From an uncultured bacterium (lineage in GTDB: Bacteria > Patescibacteriota > Minisyncoccia > UBA6257 > 2-01-FULL-56-20), in NCBI GenBank assembly GCA_963844965.1, contig CAWJQC010000008.1:64001-128000 (forward strand): DNA of 64,000 bases, in the 5' to 3' direction. How positions within the stretch are numbered: the stretch's first letter is position 1; every line of letters starts with the position of its first letter. Made by a program: the position numbers and the translations under genes. The notes beneath the pieces are model-generated. The model saw nothing but the letters and a program-made list of their open reading frames with translations. It ran no database searches and had not been told where the DNA came from. Shown piece by piece: positions 19,633-30,581 of the stretch.

Positions 19633-20130
19633 ATGGACGCCGAAAAAGAAAACTTTGTAAAAAGCTTAGTGAAAGGAAAAATTGCTGAGATAATTTTCGA
19701 GCAAATGTTCCGCGACTCCGGAAAATATACCATACTCCATGCCGGATATGAGTATACCCTGCCAGAACTAGCCCAATATCAACACTATGCAGAGGTTCGG
19801 GCAGTTATAGAAAACATCAGAAATGCGCCGGACTTCATTCTTATTTCTCAAGATCATAAAAAAGTATATTTGGTGGAGGTTAAGTATCAACGAGAAAGAC
19901 ACCCGGATAAACTTAGAGAAACCGCAAAAAAAATCCTAGAAACATGGAATGTTTCCTGGCTCTTTGTGGCGTCTCCTGACGGATTTTTTCTGGAACCATG
20001 CAGCAGAGTTGCGGACAATGGCGTAATGAATAAACTTTATGGGTATGGCAATAACGAAAGCGATATTTGGATAGAACCAAGTATTCAAGACGATTATCTA
20101 AAACTACTCAATCGATACGAACTAAAATGA
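19633..20130 (+). CDS. Hypothetical protein with PD-(D/E)xK nuclease-like motif
   Basis: The segment PDFILISQDHKKVYLVEVKYQ resembles a restriction-endonuclease-fold core. The region is AT-rich. The stop overlaps the trpS start (ATGA). Confidence 0.35.
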   Translation: MDAEKENFVKSLVKGKIAEIIFEQMFRDSGKYTILHAGYEYTLPELAQYQHYAEVRAVIENIRNAPDFILISQDHKKVYLVEVKYQRERHPDKLRETAKKILETWNVSWLFVASPDGFFLEPCSRVADNGVMNKLYGYGNNESDIWIEPSIQDDYLKLLNRYELK

Positions 20131-21272
20131 CATCAAAACCAATCCTCGTTTCCGGCGTCCAGCCCACGGGCCGATTGCATATCGGCAATTACCTAGGCGC
20201 CCTCAAAAATTTCGTGGAACTCCAGAACTCCGGCAAATACGAGTGCTACTTCTTTATCGCCGACCTGCATTCTTTGACGGAAGCCTACGAGCCCAAAGAA
20301 AAATCGGCGCAAATCCTGGAACTTGCGGCCGATTTCCTGGCCGTCGGCCTGGACCCGAAAAAATCCGTCATCTTCCAGCAATCGCAGATTCCGGCGCATA
20401 CAGAACTGTCTTGGATTTTAAGCACCTTAACATCTCTTGGAGAACTAGAAAGAATGAGACAATTTAAAGAAAAGGGTTATGAAAAATCGTATCTTCAGGA
20501 TCTTGAAAAAATTTTTGAGTTATTTCAGAAACATAGACAAGAGTTCGAAAGACAAGGTAATGAGCCTGTCGTTAAGTACTATCAAAATATGATCTCCCAA
20601 ATAAGAAATGTCGTAACGCATGGCATGGAATCAAAAATAGAGATAAATGTCGGACTATTGAATTACCCCGTCCTTATGGCCGCCGATATTTTGCTTTACG
20701 ACGCAAAATTCGTGCCCGTCGGTGACGACCAGGACCAACACCTGGAACTTGCGCGGACGCTGGCCCGGAAGTTCAACGCGAAGTTCGGCAAAACATTCGT
20801 TGAGCCGCAGGGACTTCACACACCGACTCCGCGCGTGATGAGTTTAACCGACCCGGAAAAGAAAATGTCCAAATCCGAGCCGTCCGGATGCCTTTTTATT
20901 GACGACTCGCCGGATGAAATCAAGAGAAAAATCGCGCGCGCAACAACCGATTCCGGCTCCGAAATCAAATATGGACCGGCGAAGTTCGGCATAAGTAATT
21001 TATTGGAAATTTACTCCGCTTTGTTGGGCGATACGATCCCGACGCTAGAGAAAAAATTCGCCGGCAAAAATTATTCGCAGTTCAAATCATCACTCGCGCA
21101 ATTGGTCGCAGACCATTTCGCTGGCTTCCGCAAAAAGAAGAAATTGCTATTGGCTAAACCCTATACTCTATCGGCTGCATTAAAATCAGGCTCAAAGCGG
21201 GCCACCAAGGTGGCGAATAAAAAAATAGACGAGGTTAAAGAAAAAATCGGGCTTCGCCTCGGACTATTCTAA
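20127..21272 (+). CDS. trpS: Tryptophan--tRNA ligase with a ~50-aa AT-rich in-frame insertion
   Basis: PTGRLHIGNYLGAL (HIGH) and KMSKS are present. An insertion lies between QFKEKG and GLLNYPVLMAADILLY, relative to canonical TrpRS. Confidence 0.85.
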   Translation: MTSKPILVSGVQPTGRLHIGNYLGALKNFVELQNSGKYECYFFIADLHSLTEAYEPKEKSAQILELAADFLAVGLDPKKSVIFQQSQIPAHTELSWILSTLTSLGELERMRQFKEKGYEKSYLQDLEKIFELFQKHRQEFERQGNEPVVKYYQNMISQIRNVVTHGMESKIEINVGLLNYPVLMAADILLYDAKFVPVGDDQDQHLELARTLARKFNAKFGKTFVEPQGLHTPTPRVMSLTDPEKKMSKSEPSGCLFIDDSPDEIKRKIARATTDSGSEIKYGPAKFGISNLLEIYSALLGDTIPTLEKKFAGKNYSQFKSSLAQLVADHFAGFRKKKKLLLAKPYTLSAALKSGSKRATKVANKKIDEVKEKIGLRLGLF

Positions 21273-21292: not shown

Positions 21293-22183
21293 CTAATCAA
21301 TAGCTTCTAACCACTCGACGGGCGTTTTCATATCAAGTCCCATGTGCGGCCGTTCGGTATTGTAGTAGTGAAGAAAATCGGGAATCTCCTTGCGCCACGC
21401 GGCAAGAGTGTTAGGGATACGTCGTAAACAGTCCCGCTGAAGCGTTTGGATGAACCGTTCCACATGGCTGTTATCTGTTGGCGTCCGTACGCGCGAGTGG
21501 CGATGTGAAAATCCCTGATGCTCGATGACCTTGGTAAACCATTTTGAAAACTCCCCGCCACGGTCGGATTGGATTGTGACGAAAGGAAACGGAGCTGCCG
21601 CTTGCGCTTGCTGGACGAACCGTGCGCTTAAGCGGCTTGAGACCTGGGCGGCTGGCCATGCCCACGCCCAACGGGAACATACGTCGATCAAGGCGTACGC
21701 ATGGAGGTGGTCCATGGCAATACCTTCTTGCATTGAATCGATCTCAACCAATATGCCTGGCTTTGTGGGCATGGGACGCGGAAGATACTGGTGCCACTTC
21801 TTCCATTTTGAATATCGCGTGATACCGTGGCGTTTGAGTGTACGCTTCACGGACGAAAGGCTAACGGCAATCTTTTCCTCTTCTAGCCGGTGATGGACGA
21901 TCTCCGCGCATTGGTCCCGTTCGCTGCGAAGTGCAAGGATGCGGCCAATGACCGCTCGGTCGAGTTCGCGTGGATGATGGTGCGGCCGCGATGAAAGCGT
22001 CGGGATGACAAGATGACCGCCTTCGCCATATTCCGTGCCCCGCTTCACCCATAACCGGACCGTACAATGGCTGAACCCATACTTCCGAGCGGCCTTGCGG
22101 ATACTCCACCCGGACTGCGTGAGCGCGACTGCTTCCGCCCGTACCCGGGGCAGATGGGGATTCTTGGTGTATGCCATGTACAT
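21293..22183 (-). CDS. IS481-family DDE transposase (rve integrase core)
   Basis: MYMAYTKNPHLPRVRAEAVALTQSGWSIRKAARKYG (HTH) ... IQSDRGGEFS ... TPTDNSHVERF (DDE). The ORF track extends the N-terminus spuriously. Confidence 0.8.
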   Translation of the reverse strand: MYMAYTKNPHLPRVRAEAVALTQSGWSIRKAARKYGFSHCTVRLWVKRGTEYGEGGHLVIPTLSSRPHHHPRELDRAVIGRILALRSERDQCAEIVHHRLEEEKIAVSLSSVKRTLKRHGITRYSKWKKWHQYLPRPMPTKPGILVEIDSMQEGIAMDHLHAYALIDVCSRWAWAWPAAQVSSRLSARFVQQAQAAAPFPFVTIQSDRGGEFSKWFTKVIEHQGFSHRHSRVRTPTDNSHVERFIQTLQRDCLRRIPNTLAAWRKEIPDFLHYYNTERPHMGLDMKTPVEWLEAID

Positions 22184-22219
22184 AGCTTTGCAAATTCTTG
22201 GGTGGTTACAAGCTATTGA
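21293..22219. mobile_element. IS481-family insertion sequence, ~925 bp, 18-bp imperfect terminal inverted repeats
   Basis: Left TIR tcaatagcttctaaccac at 21297-21314. Right TIR gtggttacaagctattga at 22202-22219 (17/18 match). It encloses a DDE transposase gene. Confidence 0.7.
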
Positions 22220-22448
22220 ACCACGACACAGTCTTGACAATCCGGATGGGTTAGAAAGGAAATTCCAAGATTTAAATAGATTTGTTAAGGGCAAAGGGGA
22301 AAGAGATCTAGAATTAATTACGACATTCCATTTCTTATCAAAAACAGAGGGGAGCGCAAAAGCGAAAGAGAGACTCAAGGAGTTGAAGGGGGCGACACCT
22401 GAAGAAATAAAATACGCCACGGAAGCAATTAAGCAAATTCCATCATAA
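22176..22448 (+). CDS. Hypothetical small protein, start uncertain (would begin inside the IS right end)
   Basis: The only in-frame ATG is at 22176, inside the IS terminal repeat. The product ends ...KELKGATPEEIKYATEAIKQIPS. It is AT-rich, and its stop overlaps the next start (ATGA). Confidence 0.2.
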   Translation: MYIALQILGWLQAIEPRHSLDNPDGLERKFQDLNRFVKGKGERDLELITTFHFLSKTEGSAKAKERLKELKGATPEEIKYATEAIKQIPS

Positions 22449-22713: not shown

Positions 22714-25700
22714 TTAAACCTTCCTCACCGCCAGCCAGATTTCTTTGTCTTCAAATTTCGTTGTTTCTTCCGCGTCAAATTTTTCGGATTTTTTATATTC
22801 TATTTCGCGCGCGCCGGTTTCTTTTTTCAGCAACTCCTCCTTCTTGCCCAAGACAAGACGGATTTCCGCAGGGAATACGGCCGACAAAATCATTTCGTCT
22901 TTGGGCTTCAGGCCCGCTCTCTGCCGCAGTTCCTGGACCATGCGCACCACCTCGCGCAAAATCCCCTCTTCGCGCAATTCCGGCGTGATCGCTGCGTCCA
23001 ACTCAATCTCGCCCTTCATCTTTGAGTCCACAACAACTTCCTTGACATTCACCTCTTCCGCCAAAACCGCAAGTAAATCTTTGTTTGTTTTTAATTTTTG
23101 ATTCTTAATTTTTAATTTTTGCAATGGCTGGCGGACCTTGATTCCCGCCTCCGCCCGCTTTGCAAGTCCCAAGCTCGCGAGCCGCCGCACCTCGGCCATA
23201 GCCTTCAACAATTTTGAATTTTCAATTTTCAATTTTGCACTGGCAGGCCAATCGTGCAGGTGCACGGAATTTTTATAACCGAAGCTTTCGTGTAAATATT
23301 CCGCAAAGAACGGCATGAACGGTGCGGTCAACTTGGTTGTTTCACGCAAAACAAATCCCAATGTCGCCGAAGCCACCTTGAAATCCGCCTGACTTTGGGG
23401 CTTTTGCAGTCGCCTCCGCGAACGTCTTATATACCAGCGCGACAGGTCATCAACGAATTTTTCTATCGAAAGCGCCGCCTCGCGAATTTCATATCTGTCA
23501 AGATTTTTCGTTACACTAGCGACGGTTTGGTTGAGGCGCACAAGGATCCAATTATCCAAAACGTTTTTACTCGCCGTCGGCAGCTTTCCAACTTTAGCCG
23601 CTGACTCCGCATACGTCCGATAGAATACGAATGAATTCCAAAGAAGGAGGTGGAAGCGGCGATATGCCTTAAGAATTTCTGCCTCGTCAAAACTTTTCGG
23701 CTCGCCCAGGGGGGTTACGGTATAAAAATACCAACGCACCGCATCGATTCCGTATTTCCGTATTACTTCCCAAGGATCAACCACATTACCCCTGGATTTA
23801 GCCATTTTCTGCCCGTTCTTGTCGTTTATAAGCCCGAGCGATACAACATTCTTATATGGCGATTCGTGCCCCAAGGCGGTCGCGATGGCAAGCAACGTGT
23901 AAAACCAGCCGCGCGTCTGGTCCATCCCTTCGGCGATGTAATCGGCTGGATAATCCAAACCACGAGGCACGTATCCCACAACACGACCAACTTTTGTGTT
24001 GCGTGTCACGTGCTTTGTGCTTTGTGCGAACGGATAGTGAGCCTGAGCGAACGGCATCGCCCCCGAGTCGTACCACACGTCGGCAACTTCCTTCACCCGT
24101 GAAATTCTCTTGCCGCATCTGGGGCATTTTATGGAAATCATGTCGGCGTAGGGGCGGTGCAGGTCAACCTCGCCGGTGTCGTTCCTCGGAATTATCTTCA
24201 GTTCCAATTTGTGGCACTCCGCAGGCGCGACGAAATCGCTTCCACGGCTCACTTTTTCCACGACCGCTTTCTTTTCGCTCCAGCCAAGCGCTACCTGGTT
24301 CAGCATCCAAACCGGATATTCGTGCGTTACTAAAAGTATGTTCCTGCCCTTGTACTTTTTTTCCAGGTCCCGCAGCAGATCCCAGAGGCGCACGCGGAGA
24401 TCACGCAACGATTCGCCCCCTTCCGGCCCTTTTTCAAATCTTTCCGCATGCGTAGGGAAAAGTTCCCTGTACCTACCTTCGGGCTGCCCCTCCAGTACAC
24501 CCATATTTATCTCATGGAGCCGCCTGTCAAAAATAATCTTCTCCACACCAAGCGTCCGCGCGACAATCCTTGCGGTTTCTTGCGTTCTCAGAATATCGGA
24601 GGCGATAACCAAATTCATTTTATTTCCGGTCTCCTCAAGCGCATCCTTAAGTTTTTTGGCCGATTCTTCAGCCTCACTCTTGCCTTGCGGCGTAAGGTGA
24701 TACTCGCCCCGACCGCTGTCTATCACGTGAGCAAGAAGCGTCTCGGAAAATCCGTGGCGCATCACCCAATAATTATTTTTCGGGCCGCCGGCCAACCGAT
24801 CCAGTTCATCCAAACCGCCCACGACTTCCACATTCCCGCAACTTTTGCATTCCCAGATCGGCAACGGCGTTCCCCAATAACGCTCGCGGGAAAGATTCCA
24901 GTCCTTAACTTCTCTCAGCCACTCGCCGAAGCGACCGTCTTTTAGATGCTCCGGAACCCAGTTGATTTTTTTATTGTTTGCGAGGAGTTTATCGCGCAAC
25001 TTGCCCATGGCGATGAACCAAGAACTGCGCGCGTAATAAAGCACCGGCGTTTCGCAGCGCCAGCAATAAGGATATTCGTGCGTGTAATTTTCTATTTTGA
25101 AAAGATTGCCGTTCTTGCGGAGATGTTCAAAAATTTTCTCGTCTGTTTCTTCGGTTTTGACTGGCAAGCCACCAAGTTCCGGCACGTCGCGCGTGAATTT
25201 TCCTTCCTCATCAACAGTGTGCTTCTGCGGCAAGCCCACCTTAACGCCCAACCGGTAATCGTCTTCGCCGTACATAACGGCGGTATGCACAACGCCAGTT
25301 CCCTCGTCGGTCGCCACGAAATCCGCGGCGTAAACTTTATACGCGGCGGGGGTGCGGAGCGGCTTTATTTCAAACAGCGGCTTATAGTTCAGGCCAACCA
25401 GATCTTTGCCGCTCAGAACCTCACGCACGTCGGACTCCGTCCCGAACGGATTACCCTCTTTTTTGATTATCTCCTCGGCGACAATCCAGCGCTCAATTTT
25501 GCCGCCAACCATTTTCTTCACCAAGGCGTAATTTATTTTCTCCCCGACCGCCAGTGCAACGTTTCCCGGCAACGTCCATGGCGTCGTCGTCCATGACAAA
25601 ATATAGGTATCTTCGTCCGTGTGAATATCCTCGCCGATTCTCTGTCCGCGCTTTAATCTGAATTTAAGATAAACCGACTGCTCCGTTGTTTCTTTGTAGC

Positions 25701-26277
25701 CCATGGCAAGTTCGTGCGAAGAAAGTGCCGTGCCACATCTCGAGCACCAAGGAACAACTTTGTGGCCCTTGTACAAAAGCCGGCGCTTCGCGATCTGCGC
25801 AATCGTCCACCACAACGTTTCAATATATTCCGGATCGTAGGTAACGTAAGCGTCTCTAAGGTCAAGCCAGTAACCGATGCGGCGCGTCATTTCTTCCCAC
25901 TCATCCTTATGAAGCCAAACCTGCTCCTTCGCTTTTTTATTGAAAGCCGCGATGCCGAATTTTTCTATGTCTTTTTTGGATTTCAAGCCGAGCGCTTTTT
26001 CGGTGGCCATCTCCACCGGCAAGCCGTGTGTGTCCCAGCCGGCGCGGCGCGGCACAAAATAGCCGCGCATGGATTTGTAGCGCAAAATGATGTCCTTAAC
26101 TATCCGCGCGAGAATATGATGAATTCCCGGCTTGCCGTTCGCATAAGGAGGGCCTTCGTAAAACACGAATTTCCGCTTGCCACGCCGCTCGGCAAGCGTC
26201 TTTTCAAAAACATGATTTTCTTCCCAAAATTTCAGGACTTTCTCTTCTATTTTCGGGAGGTTGAATTCTTCGGGCAT
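22714..26277 (-). CDS. ileS: Isoleucine--tRNA ligase (type 2) carrying a ~200-aa histidine-phosphatase-like insertion
   Basis: PYANGKPGIHHILARIVKDI (HIGH region), the CP1 editing domain and KMAKSRGN are present. The true start is MPEEFNLPK at 26277. An extra segment NNYWVMRHGFSE...ILLVTHEYPVWM is inserted between WGTPLPIW and DLHRPYADM. Confidence 0.9.
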   Translation of the reverse strand: MPEEFNLPKIEEKVLKFWEENHVFEKTLAERRGKRKFVFYEGPPYANGKPGIHHILARIVKDIILRYKSMRGYFVPRRAGWDTHGLPVEMATEKALGLKSKKDIEKFGIAAFNKKAKEQVWLHKDEWEEMTRRIGYWLDLRDAYVTYDPEYIETLWWTIAQIAKRRLLYKGHKVVPWCSRCGTALSSHELAMGYKETTEQSVYLKFRLKRGQRIGEDIHTDEDTYILSWTTTPWTLPGNVALAVGEKINYALVKKMVGGKIERWIVAEEIIKKEGNPFGTESDVREVLSGKDLVGLNYKPLFEIKPLRTPAAYKVYAADFVATDEGTGVVHTAVMYGEDDYRLGVKVGLPQKHTVDEEGKFTRDVPELGGLPVKTEETDEKIFEHLRKNGNLFKIENYTHEYPYCWRCETPVLYYARSSWFIAMGKLRDKLLANNKKINWVPEHLKDGRFGEWLREVKDWNLSRERYWGTPLPIWECKSCGNVEVVGGLDELDRLAGGPKNNYWVMRHGFSETLLAHVIDSGRGEYHLTPQGKSEAEESAKKLKDALEETGNKMNLVIASDILRTQETARIVARTLGVEKIIFDRRLHEINMGVLEGQPEGRYRELFPTHAERFEKGPEGGESLRDLRVRLWDLLRDLEKKYKGRNILLVTHEYPVWMLNQVALGWSEKKAVVEKVSRGSDFVAPAECHKLELKIIPRNDTGEVDLHRPYADMISIKCPRCGKRISRVKEVADVWYDSGAMPFAQAHYPFAQSTKHVTRNTKVGRVVGYVPRGLDYPADYIAEGMDQTRGWFYTLLAIATALGHESPYKNVVSLGLINDKNGQKMAKSRGNVVDPWEVIRKYGIDAVRWYFYTVTPLGEPKSFDEAEILKAYRRFHLLLWNSFVFYRTYAESAAKVGKLPTASKNVLDNWILVRLNQTVASVTKNLDRYEIREAALSIEKFVDDLSRWYIRRSRRRLQKPQSQADFKVASATLGFVLRETTKLTAPFMPFFAEYLHESFGYKNSVHLHDWPASAKLKIENSKLLKAMAEVRRLASLGLAKRAEAGIKVRQPLQKLKIKNQKLKTNKDLLAVLAEEVNVKEVVVDSKMKGEIELDAAITPELREEGILREVVRMVQELRQRAGLKPKDEMILSAVFPAEIRLVLGKKEELLKKETGAREIEYKKSEKFDAEETTKFEDKEIWLAVRKV
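24166..24777 (-). other. Histidine phosphatase (PGAM-like, RHG motif) domain inserted within ileS
   Basis: The RHG catalytic motif (VMRHGFSE) and the distal His (LLVTHEYP) are spaced as in histidine phosphatase superfamily branch 1. The segment is in frame inside the IleS catalytic core. Confidence 0.55.
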
Positions 26278-26452
26278 TAGATTAAAAATATCAAATTTTT
26301 GACACATTTCCAAGCGAAAAATCCGCCAAGCATTTCCACGTACCGGACGGGACGGTCGCAGAGACGACAACACACGATTGACGTCTTTGTGCATATTTGA
26401 TAGTCTGAACCACAGAAACGTTGACAAAAATCTACCGAGATGGAGGTGTTAT

Positions 26453-27220
26453 GTGCCGAAAAACAACGTTATAAATCTAGAAAGCGGGGTGGAAAGCATT
26501 ACCCTCGTCGGTCTAATCAAAAAAGCTGCCCGCCTTAAAGGACTGGTTTATTGGGACGGCTGCGAACGCGCTTGTTCGAAACCGATTGCGACTTATGCCC
26601 TGGACAACGAAACGCTTGCTTTCCTTGCGAAGCACGGGGTTAAACAAAATCCCCGACCGGACGGAATTTTTACCTTATCCGACACGACAGAGCGGCCTGA
26701 ACCTCGTGGCGACACGGTAGAAACGGCATTTTGGAATTTCCGGCGCCGCAAAGATCGCAAAGATGAAAAAATAGACGAGCTCGAAATCGCTCTCTCCGTC
26801 GGATTTGGTATCACGATGGAAAAGAGGGGGATTATTCTACTTCCGCAGGCATATGGGACATTTCTCTCGCCCGGCTATAATGGCGCGCATCGCCACATGT
26901 TCAAGTTGCTTGTGGAATACCACCAAGACGCTCCAGCGGTAGCTCAGGAAATTGCCGCGAGCGACGACACCTTCGTTGTCGGATTCACCGAATTGGGGCT
27001 CGGCGGCATTCGCAGGCTCTCCGATCTTTTCGAAGAATTCGCGAGGGGGAACCATACGATCAAACAACTCGCCAACCATCAGGAGGTTTTTAATCCGATG
27101 CCGTATCCTTATTACCAGAATCCAGGCGATGAACTTTTTATTATTGAGCCGGCGCAGCCGAAGGTAATCGGAGTGTGGCGGGCGCAATTAACAGAGTATC
27201 GCTCAAATCTCGTCGCCTAA
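26453..27220 (+). CDS. Hypothetical protein (GTG start 6 nt after GGAGGTG)
   Basis: The 255-aa ORF has no recognisable motif. It is followed by a strong terminator. It lies between the real ileS start and a duplicated argS-end fragment. Confidence 0.4.
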   Translation: MPKNNVINLESGVESITLVGLIKKAARLKGLVYWDGCERACSKPIATYALDNETLAFLAKHGVKQNPRPDGIFTLSDTTERPEPRGDTVETAFWNFRRRKDRKDEKIDELEIALSVGFGITMEKRGIILLPQAYGTFLSPGYNGAHRHMFKLLVEYHQDAPAVAQEIAASDDTFVVGFTELGLGGIRRLSDLFEEFARGNHTIKQLANHQEVFNPMPYPYYQNPGDELFIIEPAQPKVIGVWRAQLTEYRSNLVA

Positions 27221-27242
27221 CAAGCAAAAATGTTCAGCCCAA

Positions 27243-27280
27243 ACCGCGGGGTCTGCCTAAACCTCGCGGCTTTTTATTGA
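27243..27280 (+). terminator. Rho-independent terminator
   Basis: ccgcggggtctgcctaaacctcgcgg followed by ctttttatt. Confidence 0.6.
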
Positions 27281-27304
27281 TTCGGTGCCGAGTATTTCAA
27301 TTTC

Positions 27305-27399
27305 TCAAATCTCCTCCAGCACCTTGATTCCCAAAAGGCCGAGCTCTTTTCAAAACCATTCTCGTCCCAAAATTTCGGCAGATTGAATTCCTCAGGCAT
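27305..27399 (-). repeat. Duplicated aaRS junction: copy of the argS 3' end (27305-27343) fused to a copy of the ileS 5' end (27351-27399)
   Basis: On the minus strand it reads ATG-PEEFNLPKFWDENGFEKS-SALLGIKVLEEI*. The first half matches the ileS start (MPEEFNLPKIEEKVLKFWEEN) with a small deletion. The last 13 codons match the argS C-terminus (GLGLLGIKVLEEI) with one synonymous change. Confidence 0.7.
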
Positions 27400-27479
27400 T
27401 ATGAAAATTTTACTATTTTTTCTTTCTACTTACAAAACCCGGAATAAAAAAGGGCCGCACTTGGCGGCCGAGAAACGAT

Positions 27480-27890
27480 TCACTCCTTTTCTTTCTTCCC
27501 CTTCGGATGCGTGGATAAATAAGATCTCTTTTCAATGGTCCCTACATACTTAAGAGGAATGAGGTTGTTTTTACCTCCGTTTCTGTTCTTTCCATTCCCG
27601 TTTCCATTCTCATCTTCCAAAGAAAGACGCACATACTCCTCACCCGCTTCGTCCACGAATATGTCAACAAGGCAATTCCCCTCCAAGAGCAGGGTGAAAA
27701 AAGATCTTTTGGATATTCCTTGCGGCGTTTCAAGGGTCAACCCGCTACAAAATTTCCCATCCACCACTCGCTCGCCAACCCTGCAAGACCCGTTTGGCAT
27801 CATCTCAATCTTGCAATCCAAATTTACGCGAAAATAGATTAGCCATCTGTAGGTTCTCTCTACAAGAACCTTCTTTTCTTTAGCGTCCAT
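27480..27890 (-). CDS. Hypothetical protein with Asn/Gly-rich segment
   Basis: The 136-aa ORF contains ENGNGNGKNRNGGKNN. It lies between the duplicated ileS start and the real argS end. Confidence 0.3.
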   Translation of the reverse strand: MDAKEKKVLVERTYRWLIYFRVNLDCKIEMMPNGSCRVGERVVDGKFCSGLTLETPQGISKRSFFTLLLEGNCLVDIFVDEAGEEYVRLSLEDENGNGNGKNRNGGKNNLIPLKYVGTIEKRSYLSTHPKGKKEKE

Positions 27891-27947
27891 GAACCCCCCC
27901 TCTAAGGCAATAGCTTAGAAGAGTTTATCAAGCAATAATTTGCCCTG

Positions 27948-29672
27948 TCAAATCTCCTCCAGCACTTTGATTCCCAAAAGGCCGAGGCCTTTTTTTAGCA
28001 CGAGCGCCGCTGTTACAACAAGAATCAGAAGCGCATCGCGGCGGTATGCGTTCTCTTCCTTTATGACCGGCGTTGTTTCGTAAAGCCGGTTCGCGAGGAC
28101 GGCGAGCTTGTAGAGATAGGCGGCAAGATTTGACGTCCCTAAGTCCTTCGCGCTCCGCAAAACCTCGTCGGGAAATTCCGTTATTTTCCTTATGAGCCGC
28201 AGTTCCGTTTCGCCGCGGAGCTCGCGCAGGTCAACTTCGCCAATCTCTCCGGCTTTCTTTTTAATGCTCATAAGGCGCGCGTAAGTATATTGGAGATATG
28301 GCGCGCTGTCGCCCGTCAAGTCCAGCATTTTTTTCCAGTCAAAAACGATATCCGTCATGCGGTTTTCTTTGAGGTCGTTGTACTTCAGGGCGCCAACGCC
28401 GACCACTTCCGCGATCTTCCGTTTTTCCTCATCGGACGGGCCCTCGGCGGCTTTTTCATAACGCTTGAGGGATTTCTCGTCCACAACGTCGCGCGCAAGC
28501 GTAATCGCTTTCTCCAAGACGTCCGCAAGTAAAATCGTTTTGCCCTCGCGCGTCGCCAATTTTTTGCCAGCTTCGCCGAGAACCAAGCCGTATTTAACGT
28601 GCATTAACTCGGCCCCGTCCAACCCCACGATCTTCGCTATCGCGAAAAGCTGTTCAAAGTGCAGCGACTGTTCGTTTCCTACGACATACAAAATCTTGGC
28701 CGGCTTGTATTTCGTCAGGCGGTAATTAAGGTTAGCGATGTCGCGCGTGAGATATAGGCTTGCCCCGTCCGACTTCCGCACCAGCGCCGTCGGCAGGTGA
28801 AAACTTTCCAGATTGACGATTAAGGCGCCCGCACTTTCCTGCGCGATGCCCCGCTCCTCCAGATTCTCAAGGAGCGGCTTCAAATCCTTCTCAAAAAAGC
28901 TCTCGCCGATCCACTCGTCAAATTCAATTCCAAGGACTTTATACGTCTTCTTGAGCTCCTTTATGGATTCTTCCCGGAACAGTTCCCACAATTTCCTGTT
29001 TTCATTGTCGCCCTCCTCAAGTTTCTTGAATTCTTCCTGCCCGCGTTTTTCCAGATCCAAATTATTTCCCAGTTCTTCGTGAAAACGGACATAAAGTTTT
29101 TGCAATTCCTCAATCGGCCTTGTTCCCATCGCTCTCGCATCGCCCCACAATTTATAGGCGGCGATGATCTTGCCGAACTGCGTGCCCCAATCGCCCAGGT
29201 AGTTCCAGCGGACAACTTTGTAGCCCAAAAATTCAAAAATATTAGCGAGAGCGTCGCCGATGATCGTCGTCCTCAAATGCCCCACGTGCATTAGCTTCGC
29301 GATATTCGGCTGCGAATATTCCGCGATAACCGTTTTCCATCCACCAATGGAACTTCTGCCGAACCTCTCAGCGTTCTCGTGGATGCTTCCGAGCTCGTCC
29401 TGAAGCGCCTCGTTGCTTATCCAAAAATTCACGAACCCCGGCGGTGCCGTATCTGTTCTCTCAAAAAATCCCCGCGGTGCGCCGTTCCAAACGTTAATGG
29501 CGATTTCCCTAGCCAAATCAATTGCATTCCTGCCGTTTTTTTTCGCGAGCCGCAGAGCCAAATTAGTGGAATAGTGGCCAAATTCTTCCCTCTCCGGGAC
29601 AAAAACGTCAATAACCTCGGCGTCGGTGCCGGCAACCGCTCCTTTTATAATTTCCACGATTTTTTCCTTCAT
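27948..29672 (-). CDS. argS: Arginine--tRNA ligase
   Basis: The class I signature is PNIAKLMHVGHLRTTIIGDALANI. The anticodon-binding C-terminal domain is present. Confidence 0.9.
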   Translation of the reverse strand: MKEKIVEIIKGAVAGTDAEVIDVFVPEREEFGHYSTNLALRLAKKNGRNAIDLAREIAINVWNGAPRGFFERTDTAPPGFVNFWISNEALQDELGSIHENAERFGRSSIGGWKTVIAEYSQPNIAKLMHVGHLRTTIIGDALANIFEFLGYKVVRWNYLGDWGTQFGKIIAAYKLWGDARAMGTRPIEELQKLYVRFHEELGNNLDLEKRGQEEFKKLEEGDNENRKLWELFREESIKELKKTYKVLGIEFDEWIGESFFEKDLKPLLENLEERGIAQESAGALIVNLESFHLPTALVRKSDGASLYLTRDIANLNYRLTKYKPAKILYVVGNEQSLHFEQLFAIAKIVGLDGAELMHVKYGLVLGEAGKKLATREGKTILLADVLEKAITLARDVVDEKSLKRYEKAAEGPSDEEKRKIAEVVGVGALKYNDLKENRMTDIVFDWKKMLDLTGDSAPYLQYTYARLMSIKKKAGEIGEVDLRELRGETELRLIRKITEFPDEVLRSAKDLGTSNLAAYLYKLAVLANRLYETTPVIKEENAYRRDALLILVVTAALVLKKGLGLLGIKVLEEI

Positions 29673-29783: not shown

Positions 29784-30581
29784 CTATATTTTCACGGCGA
29801 CCAATGCCCTTTCCCTAAAAAATTCGTCGTTATTTTTATTAGCTTTCTGCAGCAGCGTCATAGCGGCATAAATTTTTTTCTTATCAAACGAGAAAAGTGC
29901 CTTCCGGAATCCGAGGTCGGACAAATACATCTCAAACCCGTCGGTCGCGAGCAGATAGACGGCATTTTTTCTCAAGTTCGCTTTTCCATAGCGAACGTAA
30001 ATTTCGGCCGCCCTCTCGCCCGTGACGACGCCATATCCCTTTTTCTCTCCCCGCGCTCCGACCGCGTTTCTGAAAACCGTGCGCAAAAGGAAGGTTCTAT
30101 CCATCTCGGAGTAGCGGGACAAGTCAAATCCGTGGTGGTGAGTGTGGTCGCGATTCCAAAATAATAACCTTCCATCGGGGCCGATCGCAGCGACGCCGGC
30201 ATCGCAGATATTTCCATATTCAACCCGACGACTGCAAATCCGAAGGAAAGCCGCCGTCGCGGCGTAGTAGCAACTCGCGTTTTGGAAAACGGAATATTTA
30301 TCACGATTTTTATTGAAAATAAACACGCTGCGGTTTGCCTTTCTGAACGCGTTTTTTAACATTCCGCGCCTAGCGTTGCGGACAAACACGTCACAAAATT
30401 TCTGCGCGAGTTTTCCCGCCGGCGACGGACGGGGATATTTCTTCTTGTATTCGATTCCCTTGTATAGGTGAACTCCGTCCGCCACAGCAAAAATTTTATT
30501 CTTGGCGTCAACTACCCAAGCGTCTTCTTTCGGAAGGCGTGGTCGATGAGTATGCGGAAAATAAAGTTGAATAATTTTCAT
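29784..30581 (-). CDS. PPM-type (PP2C/SpoIIE-like) phosphatase, putative
   Basis: Motifs FAVADGV, CDAGVAAIGPDGRLLFW and LLATDGFEMYL resemble PPM metal-binding blocks. The match is weak. Confidence 0.4.
   Translation of the reverse strand: MKIIQLYFPHTHRPRLPKEDAWVVDAKNKIFAVADGVHLYKGIEYKKKYPRPSPAGKLAQKFCDVFVRNARRGMLKNAFRKANRSVFIFNKNRDKYSVFQNASCYYAATAAFLRICSRRVEYGNICDAGVAAIGPDGRLLFWNRDHTHHHGFDLSRYSEMDRTFLLRTVFRNAVGARGEKKGYGVVTGERAAEIYVRYGKANLRKNAVYLLATDGFEMYLSDLGFRKALFSFDKKKIYAAMTLLQKANKNNDEFFRERALVAVKI

Follow-up and report, generated by a model that had tools for sequence, protein, structure and literature searches.

The ileS gene of the window (the whole 64,000-nucleotide stretch of DNA analysed here) appears to encode a two-enzyme polypeptide: nested within the body of a type-2 isoleucyl-tRNA synthetase (IleRS) is an entire histidine phosphatase domain of branch 1, similar in type to PhoE, PspA, and GpgP. 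The phosphatase subfamily occurs in two forms, either as a ~195-aa gene directly upstream of ileS or as a domain embedded in IleRS. The split and fused states are complementary. On balance, the evidence favors a catalytically competent phosphatase of the small-molecule type, which is probably a dedicated partner of IleRS in Patescibacteria. The stand-alone counterpart directly upstream of an insert-less ileS and the multi-copy forms are new here; like the wide occurrence of the fusion, they lay beyond the reach of the initial annotation. No description of a phosphatase-IleRS fusion was found in the literature searched, which included work on IleRS2 evolution and left most subscription journals outside its scope.

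The synthetase and the site of insertion

The open reading frame at 22714..26427 on the minus strand encodes IleRS. The TTG at 26427 is the limit of the mechanical open reading frame, and the true start is likely the ATG at 26277 (MPEEF...), which gives a protein of 1187 aa. A database protein of the same length (P0001) is 100% identical to it. NCBI labels such proteins only as 'class I tRNA ligase family protein'. The window protein scored 841 bits against the isoleucine--tRNA ligase model TIGR00392 (cut-off 621), with the match split in two by the insert, and Pfam tRNA-synt_1, Anticodon_1, and DUF5915 were all matched. The type-2 assignment comes from a ranking of PDB entries, in which 1ILE and the 8C8x structures matched at 1e-218 to 1e-227 as opposed to 1e-98 to 1e-104 for type-1 structures. 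The DUF5915 C-terminus that type-2 membership requires is also present, whereas type-1 enzymes have a zinc-binding C-terminus. The editing-domain motifs WTTTPWTLPGN and GTGVVHTAVMYGEDD align to the IleRS of Thermus thermophilus (Tth). With the GIHH and KMAKS signatures, the editing motifs, the anticodon-binding domain, and the DUF5915 C-terminus all intact, the IleRS body is predicted to be functional.

A GXHH motif in IleRS2 has been linked to mupirocin hyper-resistance (bioRxiv 10.1101/2023.01.31.526100), and the window IleRS has the same signature variant as these hyper-resistant enzymes. The acquired mupirocin-resistance synthetases MupA and MupB were rejected as identities (NF000257 and NF000258; 728 and 735 bits against a cut-off of 1900). 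The ileS_w_GNAT family was rejected as well (NF040702; 314 bits against a cut-off of 1999), and the window protein had no acetyltransferase match in Pfam.

The initial annotation had described this IleRS as about 200 aa longer than type-2 enzymes, and the lengths bear this out: the window protein has 1187 aa, insert-less relatives have 938-984 aa, and the IleRS2 of P. megaterium has 1032 aa. The window IleRS otherwise shares with the type-2 (eukaryote-like, mupirocin-resistant) enzymes of T. thermophilus (1ILE; 1e-227) and P. megaterium (8C8U/V/W; 1e-221) the same domain order, the editing domain, the four-Cys zinc knuckle, and DUF5915. The difference lies in the zinc-knuckle loop, where ~200 extra residues replace only six residues of the Tth protein (482-487). 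The Tth sequence aligns up to residue ~497 of the window protein and again from ~704, and a close insert-less relative (L089) reads 'ELREKAKISSEIN-DLHRPY' at the insertion point. These two alignments set the bounds of an in-frame insertion between the WGTPLPIW and DLHRPY/Zn-finger blocks, as had been proposed. In other words, the insertion interrupts the loop of the four-Cys zinc knuckle. This knuckle belongs to the second half of the Rossmann fold, and the site corresponds to CP3 of the ValRS and LeuRS structures.

The insert is a real, native feature of the gene. The segment 24166-24777 on the minus strand (residues 501-704) is stop-free and reads NNYWVMRHGFSE...LLVTHEYP...TGEV. Its GC content (0.51-0.55) matches that of the remainder of ileS, and the homologues all carry it, which upholds the earlier view that the segment is native coding sequence and no recent mobile insertion. 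The phosphatase domain is flanked by linkers (GPKNNYW... and ...IIPRNDTGE), in which N501, Y503, P697, R698, and G702 are conserved among 120 homologues. An intein or another mobile in-frame element was rejected because no Hint or homing-endonuclease family was among the Pfam matches and the residues at the junctions (GG|PKNNYW and TGEV|DLHRP) are not intein-like.

In a full-length AF2 model (pLDDT 90.4, pTM 0.85), the insert was the most confident region. The modeled IleRS body matched IleRS2 structures with a TMt of 0.78-0.92; solved IleRS structures leave the phosphatase domain uncovered (TMq <=0.72).

Table 1. Coordinates of ileS, its neighbor argS, and the features of the encoded protein. 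Conservation is given as the number of homologues or genome loci that carry the residue.
Feature	Position in window	Strand	Basis or remark
argS, arginyl-tRNA synthetase, upstream of ileS	27948..29672	-	Pfam
ileS, type-2 isoleucyl-tRNA synthetase	22714..26277	-	1187 aa + stop
G-I-H-H, non-canonical class I HxGH signature	26116..26127	-	Translation and alignment
C477 and C480, N-terminal half of the four-Cys zinc knuckle	24838..24849	-	C477 120/120, C480 119/120; equivalent to Tth C461/C464
Insertion of ~206 aa (residues 498-703), His_Phos_1 domain and linkers	24169..24786	-	Relative to insert-less IleRS2
R507-H508-G509 (RHG); H508, predicted phospho-accepting nucleophile	24751..24759	-	R and H 120/120; G 119/120
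R564, second phosphate-pocket Arg (S-D-x-x-R-T-x-E-T-A)	24586..24588	-	120/120 homologues, 80/80 genome loci; equivalent to Arg of PhoE 'SGRALETA'
E589, predicted general acid (L-x-E-I-x-x-G)	24511..24513	-	E 118/120, D 2/120; E in 80/80 genome loci; equivalent to Glu of PhoE 'LREIHLG'
H652, second catalytic His (L-L-V-T-H-E-Y-P)	24322..24324	-	Invariant 120/120; equivalent to His of PhoE 'IVTHGV'
C718 and C721, C-terminal half of the knuckle (IKCPRCG)	24115..24126	-	Invariant 120/120; align to the cysteines of Tth 'AC-ACGG'
K-M-A-K-S, KMSKS loop of the synthetic site	23794..23808	-	K824, M825, K827, and S828 invariant

The phosphatase domain and its active site

The proposal that a histidine phosphatase is embedded in IleRS was confirmed by a profile search on the excised segment, which matched His_Phos_1 (PF00300) at E=2.2e-29 with 103 bits (cut-off 21.7) over profile positions 2-165 of 194. 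The match persisted in the full-length protein (E=6.5e-28), and the domain has the alpha/beta fold of phosphoglycerate mutase-like phosphatases. The RHG histidine and the distal histidine noted earlier are the catalytic pair of this family, H508 and H652. In the predicted active site, H508 would act as the nucleophile, R507, R564, and H652 would form the phosphate pocket, and E589 would serve as the acid. The predicted reaction is the hydrolysis of a phosphomonoester via a phospho-histidine intermediate because the full catalytic set is kept.

The insert could have been a lineage-typical extension lacking conserved catalytic residues. It is indeed lineage-typical, but R507, H508, R564, and H652 are invariant in the 120 closest homologues, which are 57-81% identical to the window protein. 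E622 and R630 are likewise invariant in this set. In the 80 genome loci, R507, H508, and H652 were partly fixed by the motif-scan pattern itself. The Asn that usually follows RHG is variable, being N in 73 of the 120 homologues and L in the window protein. Mean pairwise identity is 51% for the insert and 53% for the IleRS C-terminal domain. Invariant catalytic residues at this level of divergence, together with an insert identity close to that of the C-terminal domain, indicate purifying selection on the insert.

Which histidine phosphatase does the domain resemble most? Among solved structures, the nearest are small-molecule phosphatases of broad specificity or metabolic function, and the helical cap typical of such enzymes is retained. 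The protein phosphatases SixA, PGAM5, and Sts were also recovered as structural matches, at lower scores. A small molecule, rather than a protein, is therefore the expected substrate, given the retained cap and the closer likeness to small-molecule phosphatases than to SixA, PGAM5, or Sts. The insert is only 20-23% identical to PhoE/YhfR (1H2E), PspA (4IJ5), glucosyl-3-phosphoglycerate phosphatase (6S2Q/4PZA), the riboflavin-pathway HFP (9MMH), and CobC (6E4B). It differs from these branch-1 metabolic phosphatases in its IleRS-nested or IleRS-adjacent setting, in its missed equivalog cut-offs, and in a signature of its own subfamily (N-x-Y-[WFY]-x-x-R-H-G and S/T-H-E-Y-P-I-W-M-L).

Several named families were rejected on these cut-offs. 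Cofactor-dependent phosphoglycerate mutase (dPGM) fell short in both models (TIGR01258 pgm_1, 17.9 against 81.7; NF038349 dPGM_arch, 64.5 against 225), and the insert has H-E-Y-P at the second His, not the H-G-N-S motif that dPGM has there. The alpha-ribazole phosphatase CobC (TIGR03162; 60.8 against 162.9), the phosphoserine phosphatase PspA (NF045917; 46.1 against 350), GpmB (NF002901; 51.2 against 261), and SixA (TIGR00249; 31 against 74.5) were likewise below their thresholds.

Distribution of the fused form

The initial annotation had called for a survey of relatives, and the insertion proved to be common among them. The PF00300 domain is present in all 120 of the closest IleRS homologues. 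A scan for the insert motif found it in at least 269 GTDB species representatives of Paceibacteria/Parcubacteria lineages, with names including Paceibacterota, Minisyncoccia, Liptonbacteria, Sungbacteria, Nomurabacteria, and Campbellbacteria. An exhaustive profile search of 1.84 billion proteins recovered 239 representatives (50% identity) at E<=1e-30; it superseded a word-indexed search with the insert alone, which gave two weak stand-alone matches and missed the protein itself. Assemblies from NCBI, JGI, ENA, and Logan show this architecture independently, hundreds of times over.

Some IleRS carry two tandem phosphatase copies, and one ValRS-like open reading frame carries four. The tandem-copy IleRS belong to Peribacteria, and the four-copy frame (P0135) comes from two contigs of 3.9 kb. 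The high summed scores of such multi-copy proteins are additive artefacts.

A stand-alone phosphatase gene beside ileS

The best non-fused matches in the whole library are stand-alone relatives of ~190-200 aa, with scores of 145-185 bits. Seven of the nine with usable context lie directly upstream of an insert-less ileS. The gene order in these split-gene relatives is argS-hp-ileS, and the gap between the phosphatase gene (hp) and ileS ranges from -12 to a few tens of nt. One stand-alone protein (P0200), the neighbor of a 45-54%-identical insert-less IleRS, can be aligned over its whole length with the window insert (35% identity).

A set of 80 metagenome loci gave the same picture. The ileS start lay <=300 nt downstream of the phosphatase gene for 50 of the 57 informative stand-alone genes and <=1.4 kb downstream for a further three; 20 further loci held embedded forms. 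The association also holds in reverse: when an insert-less IleRS, in this case one from Nealsonbacteria, was picked solely for its IleRS similarity, a His_Phos_1 gene of 198 aa lay 6 bp upstream of it. Altogether, ~95% of the sampled subfamily loci are inside ileS or directly upstream of it. At least six stand-alone members are not beside ileS, and one stand-alone member adjoins genes for a ROK kinase, a HAD hydrolase, and GlmS.

Fused loci show the converse pattern: a stand-alone copy upstream of ileS was found in none of 80 fused genome loci, and argS lay upstream on the same strand in 60 of them. In the window, a six-frame HMM search of the argS-ileS spacer (26278-27947) found no remnant of a stand-alone phosphatase, and the two open reading frames in the spacer had no Pfam match. 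Elsewhere in the window, a PP2C-like gene lies next to argS, an IS-type transposase open reading frame lies just downstream of ileS, and TrpRS also carries an insertion.

In a neighbor-joining tree of the phosphatase domains, most ileS-adjacent stand-alone genes form one cluster nested among embedded forms, and the multi-copy and ValRS copies fall outside that cluster. Built from 214 columns and lacking support values, this tree is too crude for a claim on the direction (fusion or fission) or the number of events. In a comparison of charge and pI, the stand-alone forms were the more basic, with a mean pI of 9.5 and a net charge of +15.6. This was not taken as a sign of RNA binding because the proteome is generally basic too.

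Possible roles of the phosphatase

A separate phosphatase gene before ileS in relatives suggests that the two enzymes work together in a way not yet described, and a split-gene counterpart tied to ileS is a textbook example of the Rosetta-stone signal for functionally linked proteins. What might such a partner act on? A working guess is a nucleotide-type phosphoester or phosphoanhydride tied to aminoacylation, such as AMP, PPi, or a related nucleotide. A tentative extension is that the phosphatase supplies a previously unrecognised accessory activity of IleRS, in cis or in trans, on species of the reaction cycle or on IleRS or tRNA-Ile itself. It might clear PPi, AMP, or another nucleotide by-product, reverse an inhibitory phosphorylation, or destroy a phosphorylated inhibitor. 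Such an activity would explain the embedded-or-upstream placement across Patescibacteria as well as the similar domains in ValRS. The multiple tandem copies argue against one precise geometric coupling to the synthetic site.

Adjacency in a housekeeping operon could reflect co-expression only. A credible but rather unlikely alternative is that the domain is active but serves general metabolism, for example the salvage of sugar phosphates, phosphoserine, or nucleotides, and has nothing to do with the chemistry of IleRS. The phosphatase would have been first in the argS-ileS operon and would later have entered a surface loop of IleRS that tolerates insertions, with guaranteed co-expression and stability in a minimal genome as the only gain. 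The metabolic character of the nearest solved structures, the copy number of one to four at the same site, the member beside the ROK kinase, HAD hydrolase, and GlmS genes, and the insertions in other proteins of these organisms, such as the window TrpRS, are consistent with this alternative. However, it does not readily account for the concentration of the subfamily in or directly upstream of ileS or for the complementarity of the split and fused states. Furthermore, a mid-gene insertion is not a simple read-through fusion, and the conserved linkers and the fixed docking predicted by the model (pTM 0.85) also speak for a dedicated partner of IleRS.

An improbable alternative is a phosphatase directed at a macromolecule, which would reverse an inhibitory phosphorylation of IleRS (for example near the KMSKS/ATP site) or trim a terminal phosphate of tRNA-Ile. 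Hip-type toxin kinases phosphorylate GluRS and TrpRS in this inhibitory fashion. The superfamily includes protein phosphatases, among them the lower-scoring SixA, PGAM5, and Sts; the insertion lies within the catalytic domain; the phosphatases encoded as separate genes are very basic; and the PP2C-like gene by argS suggests phospho-signalling in this organism. The structural likeness set out above favors a small-molecule substrate.

It is very improbable that the fold is kept as a non-catalytic module, that is, as a structural, tRNA-binding, or ligand-sensing pseudo-enzyme. The variable Asn after RHG and a stand-alone representative (P0240) in which Ser replaces the second His would fit this reading, but both His and both Arg are invariant and E589 is nearly so, in the 120 homologues and in the more divergent genome loci, which is hard to explain without catalysis. 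Explanations by artefact (a chimeric assembly or a wrongly called frame) or by a selfish element (an intein or a mobile insertion of recent date) could at most appeal to the transposase open reading frame downstream of ileS and can practically be dismissed, given the hundreds of independent assemblies that share the architecture, the stop-free reading frame of native composition, and the lack of an intein/Hint match in Pfam or of intein-like boundaries.

Implications and relation to known systems

Aminoacyl-tRNA synthetases are among the best-studied enzymes, and the catalytic domains that have been added to them are mainly a feature of eukaryotes and usually sit at a terminus. In hundreds of species of uncultivated Patescibacteria, by comparison, the catalytic Rossmann-fold region of an essential synthetase contains a complete second enzyme whose predicted active site is intact. 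Were the phosphatase to act on the aminoacylation cycle, it would represent a new kind of synthetase accessory activity, and it could bear on nucleotide management, fidelity, or antibiotic pressure in ultra-small symbiotic bacteria. Metabolic reconstructions of CPR bacteria miss a phosphatase because pathway annotation does not see the nested domain. The split pair of a stand-alone phosphatase and an insert-less IleRS, as in Nealsonbacteria GCA_026396095.1, and the fused form offer a ready experimental system.

The fusion of a CobC-like histidine phosphatase with an enzyme of nucleic-acid metabolism has a precedent in the bifunctional RNase H/acid phosphatase of the Rv2228c type (PRK07238). 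Among NCBIfam models, it scored highest on the insert (80 bits, far under the cut-off of 326). That fusion is end-to-end with RNase H, whereas the IleRS phosphatase is nested. The leucine-specific domain of LeuRS is a lineage-specific insertion in the catalytic body of a class Ia synthetase. The ileS_w_GNAT family likewise has a lineage-specific module inside a class Ia synthetase body; the window insert differs in being a complete, independent enzyme fold. In one relative (P0204), a His_Phos insert and a GNAT domain occur together.

A histidine phosphatase within the catalytic domain of IleRS

The initial annotation placed a histidine phosphatase inside the isoleucyl-tRNA synthetase (IleRS), and this observation is real and far beyond chance. 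The flagged segment alone matched Pfam His_Phos_1 (PF00300) with E=2.2e-29 and 103 bits (gathering score 21.7), and the protein containing it matched NCBIfam TIGR00392 (841 bits; cut-off 621). The view of the segment as native and not AT-rich was also borne out by its GC content (0.51-0.55), which resembles that of the remainder of the gene. Within the histidine phosphatase superfamily, the insert belongs to the PhoE-like branch, of which it is an ordinary member.

The rest of the protein is an ordinary type-2 IleRS with a GXHH motif. Homologue alignments and an identical database protein (P0001, 1187 aa) placed the likely ileS start at the ATG at 26277 (MPEEFNLPKIEE...). Pfam tRNA-synt_1, Anticodon_1 and DUF5915 were each matched, and the protein retains GIHH (a variant of HxGH), KMAKS, the anticodon-binding domain and both editing motifs (Thr-rich and GTG..H...G.DD). 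Judged by its sequence, the IleRS body looks functional. GIHH is (nearly) invariant across the 120 homologues described below and is found in the insert-less relative at locus L089, and the canonical HYGH occurs in another split-type IleRS (L085). The GXHH motif has been experimentally tied to mupirocin hyper-resistance in IleRS2 (Brkic et al., bioRxiv 10.1101/2023.01.31.526100).

Where does the phosphatase enter IleRS? The Thermus thermophilus (Tth) enzyme (1ILE, E=9e-227), a type-2 IleRS without the insert, aligns to the window protein as two blocks, and six of its residues (482-487) lie opposite about 206 residues of the window protein. The L089 IleRS, a much closer relative, is 54% identical before the insertion point and 45% identical after it, and reads WGTPLPVWQCAKCNKIICLGSIKELREKAKISSEIN-DLHRPYIDKIILKCDCSGKMKRVPEVIDCWFDSG at that point. 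Therefore, the domain is nested in the loop of a four-Cys zinc knuckle, whose cysteines C477/C480 and C718/C721 correspond to Tth C461/C464/C502/C504. The WGxPxPxW strand lies on one side of the insert and the DVWYDSG segment of the second Rossmann half on the other. We take this position to be the CP3 site of class Ia enzymes, near the leucine-specific domain of LeuRS.

A full-length AF2 model (pLDDT 90.4, pTM 0.85) could be superposed on crystal structures of IleRS2 (TMt 0.78-0.92); no solved structure covers the insert. The sole low-confidence stretch of the model (pLDDT below 50) is a second small insertion at residues 755-772, flanked by the DVWYDSG block and the DYIAEGMDQTRGWF strand.

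Features of the ileS region, and one ValRS-like ORF from elsewhere (window positions unless a locus is named; residue numbers are those of the 1187-aa IleRS)
Feature	Position	Strand	Remarks
TrpRS gene (trpS)	20067-21272	+	Pfam tRNA-synt_1b in two stretches
IS-type transposase ORF	21293-22420	-	rve integrase core and HTH domains
ileS ORF	22714-26427	-	one long ORF covering the flagged region
Second small lineage-specific insertion (...KHVTRNTKVGRVVGYVPRGL...)	23962-24015	-	IleRS residues 755-772; relative to T. thermophilus IleRS
Flagged segment, 204 residues (NNYWVMRHGFSE...LLVTHEYP...TGEV)	24166-24777	-	IleRS residues 501-704
Class I signature, G-I-H-H, not H-x-G-H	26116-26127	-	IleRS residues 51-54
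argS-ileS spacer	26278-27947		two ORFs, neither with a Pfam match
Spacer ORF, 280 aa	26378-27220	+	no Pfam match
Spacer ORF, 136 aa	27480-27890	-	no Pfam match
Weak PP2C-like protein phosphatase ORF	29784-30581	-	Pfam PP2C_2 E=3.6e-5, slightly under gathering score
P0135, ValRS-like ORF	L096/L097, 366-3851		valS models 380-411 bits

Conservation and distribution

Conservation was assessed in the 120 best full-length homologues (57-81% identity to the window protein), which are unbiased for phosphatase motifs because they were picked by overall IleRS similarity. PF00300 was present in all 120. R507, H508, R564 and H652 of the predicted catalytic set were invariant, as were Y503, E622 and R630; G509 was kept in 119, and position 589 was E in 118 and D in two. 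The Asn that usually follows RHG was not conserved (N in 73 of 120; L in the window protein). The four zinc cysteines were conserved. Mean pairwise identity was 51% for the insert, 53% for the IleRS C-terminal domain and 72-74% for the Rossmann core. Linker residues N501, P697-R698 and G702 were also conserved, which together with the pTM of the model suggests that the insert docks in a fixed position and is not a floppy tether.

When 1.84 billion representatives were searched exhaustively with a profile, 239 proteins scored E<=1e-30. Scanning one genome per species for motifs revealed relatives in at least 269 GTDB species representatives, under record titles including Paceibacterota, Parcubacteria, Minisyncoccia, Liptonbacteria, Sungbacteria, Nomurabacteria and Campbellbacteria. 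The scan patterns include both RHG and SHE, so the conservation of these two motifs among the representatives is partly built in; R564, E589, E622 and R630, which the patterns do not fix, were present in 80/80 genome loci. Overall, the results show a histidine phosphatase that is native and widely conserved, with its predicted catalytic residues intact.

A stand-alone counterpart in front of ileS

The main extension of the earlier sequence-only observation is a split-gene counterpart. Among the best 150 matches of the exhaustive search, 20 were complete phosphatase-only proteins (187-231 aa). The stand-alone proteins share the insert's signature N-x-Y-[YF]-x-x-RHG ... SH[GE]-x-P-L-W, and one of them (P0200) aligns end to end with the window insert at 35% identity. 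The conserved gene order is argS - hp - ileS - x - recO, where hp is the phosphatase gene; the hp stop codon and the start of an insert-less ileS (938-984 aa) are 1-10 nt apart or overlap. This arrangement was found for P0233, P0228, P0200, P0258, P0219 (the downstream ORF is an IleRS N-terminus), P0218 (Candidatus Staskawiczbacteria) and the P0240 cluster, and P0193 and P0264 are located elsewhere. A metagenome scan queried with the stand-alone alignment gave 80 loci, 50 of which are stand-alone genes followed on the same strand by an ileS N-terminus within 300 nt; the others comprise three with ileS at 0.6-1.4 kb downstream, four with none, 20 embedded and three uninformative. The reverse test gave the same picture: P0297, an insert-less IleRS from Candidatus Nealsonbacteria chosen purely on IleRS similarity, is preceded, at a distance of 6 bp, by a His_Phos_1 gene of 198 aa.

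No upstream stand-alone copy was found at any of the 80 fused genome loci, and argS is still upstream on the same strand in 60 of them, likewise in the window. The 120 closest relatives of the L089 IleRS include 47 with the insert and 73 without; both states carry the label Nealsonbacteria, so fused and insert-less states interleave among close relatives.

A minority of stand-alone members lie away from ileS (L087 1547-2164; L094 266-883; L030 9483-10127). One overlaps a ROK-family kinase gene with a HAD hydrolase and GlmS close by, one adjoins glycosyltransferase and methyltransferase genes, and one follows a fused ileS at a distance of ~3 kb. In the stand-alone P0240 (alignment A3), the second catalytic His is replaced by Ser (LLVSSEGP), which may reflect an inactive form or a sequencing error.

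Multi-copy and composite variants

Six IleRS representatives (P0180, P0206, P0222, P0197, P0259 and P0266, the last from Candidatus Peribacteria) carry two tandem phosphatase copies and reach 1468 aa. R, H, R, E and H are kept in every copy; the first domain of P0197 is exceptional in having Q at both the E622 and R630 positions, and P0222 has lost the zinc-knuckle cysteines. The ValRS-like P0135 has four His_Phos_1 copies: one precedes the WWGHRIPVWY strand and three follow it. P0135 is tentative because its ORF stops inside 3.9-kb contigs and may be interrupted or a pseudogene. P0204 (1066 aa, JGI) combines IleRS, a Y1-transposase-like segment, the phosphatase and GNAT. The tyrosine transposase-like segment, of the Y1/REP-associated type, lies in frame within the editing-domain region (residues ~326-472), and the GNAT acetyltransferase domain is at the end; NCBIfam keeps a separate 'ileS_w_GNAT' family.

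Possible function

Nesting or tight operonic adjacency ties the phosphatase to IleRS, which shows a Rosetta-stone pattern. We infer an active phosphomonoesterase that would serve IleRS as a dedicated partner. A small-molecule substrate is favoured by the domain's fold neighbours and by its cap; our working guess is a nucleotide-type compound connected with aminoacylation (AMP, PPi or a related nucleotide). Copy number varies, which speaks against strict substrate channelling and also keeps alive the explanation in which the phosphatase serves general housekeeping and merely hitch-hikes on ileS. Less likely are a role directed at protein or tRNA and a non-catalytic role. An artefact, an intein or a recent mobile insertion is ruled out by native GC, the Pfam matches, PF00300 with conserved residues in 120 homologues, and the relatives in at least 269 species.

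The sequences are already in databases with automatic PF00300 labels and the NCBI name 'class I tRNA ligase family protein'. Full-text searches and papers on IleRS2 evolution yielded no account of either the fusion or the operon. What is unusual is the combination of a whole enzyme nested in the catalytic-domain zinc knuckle and an ileS-locked stand-alone form.

Neighbours of ileS in the window

No trace of a stand-alone phosphatase gene emerged from a six-frame HMM search of the argS-ileS spacer. The IS-type transposase ORF is placed between trpS and the ileS 3' end and has a GC content of 0.54-0.58 versus 0.40-0.50 in its flanks. The PP2C-like ORF adjoins argS and is followed by O-methyltransferase and FolD genes. 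TrpRS seems to be interrupted by an insertion of some 50 aa (around ...EKGYEKSYLQDLEKIFELFQKHRQEFERQGNEPVVKYYQNMISQIRNVV...), making it another synthetase with a lineage-specific insert.
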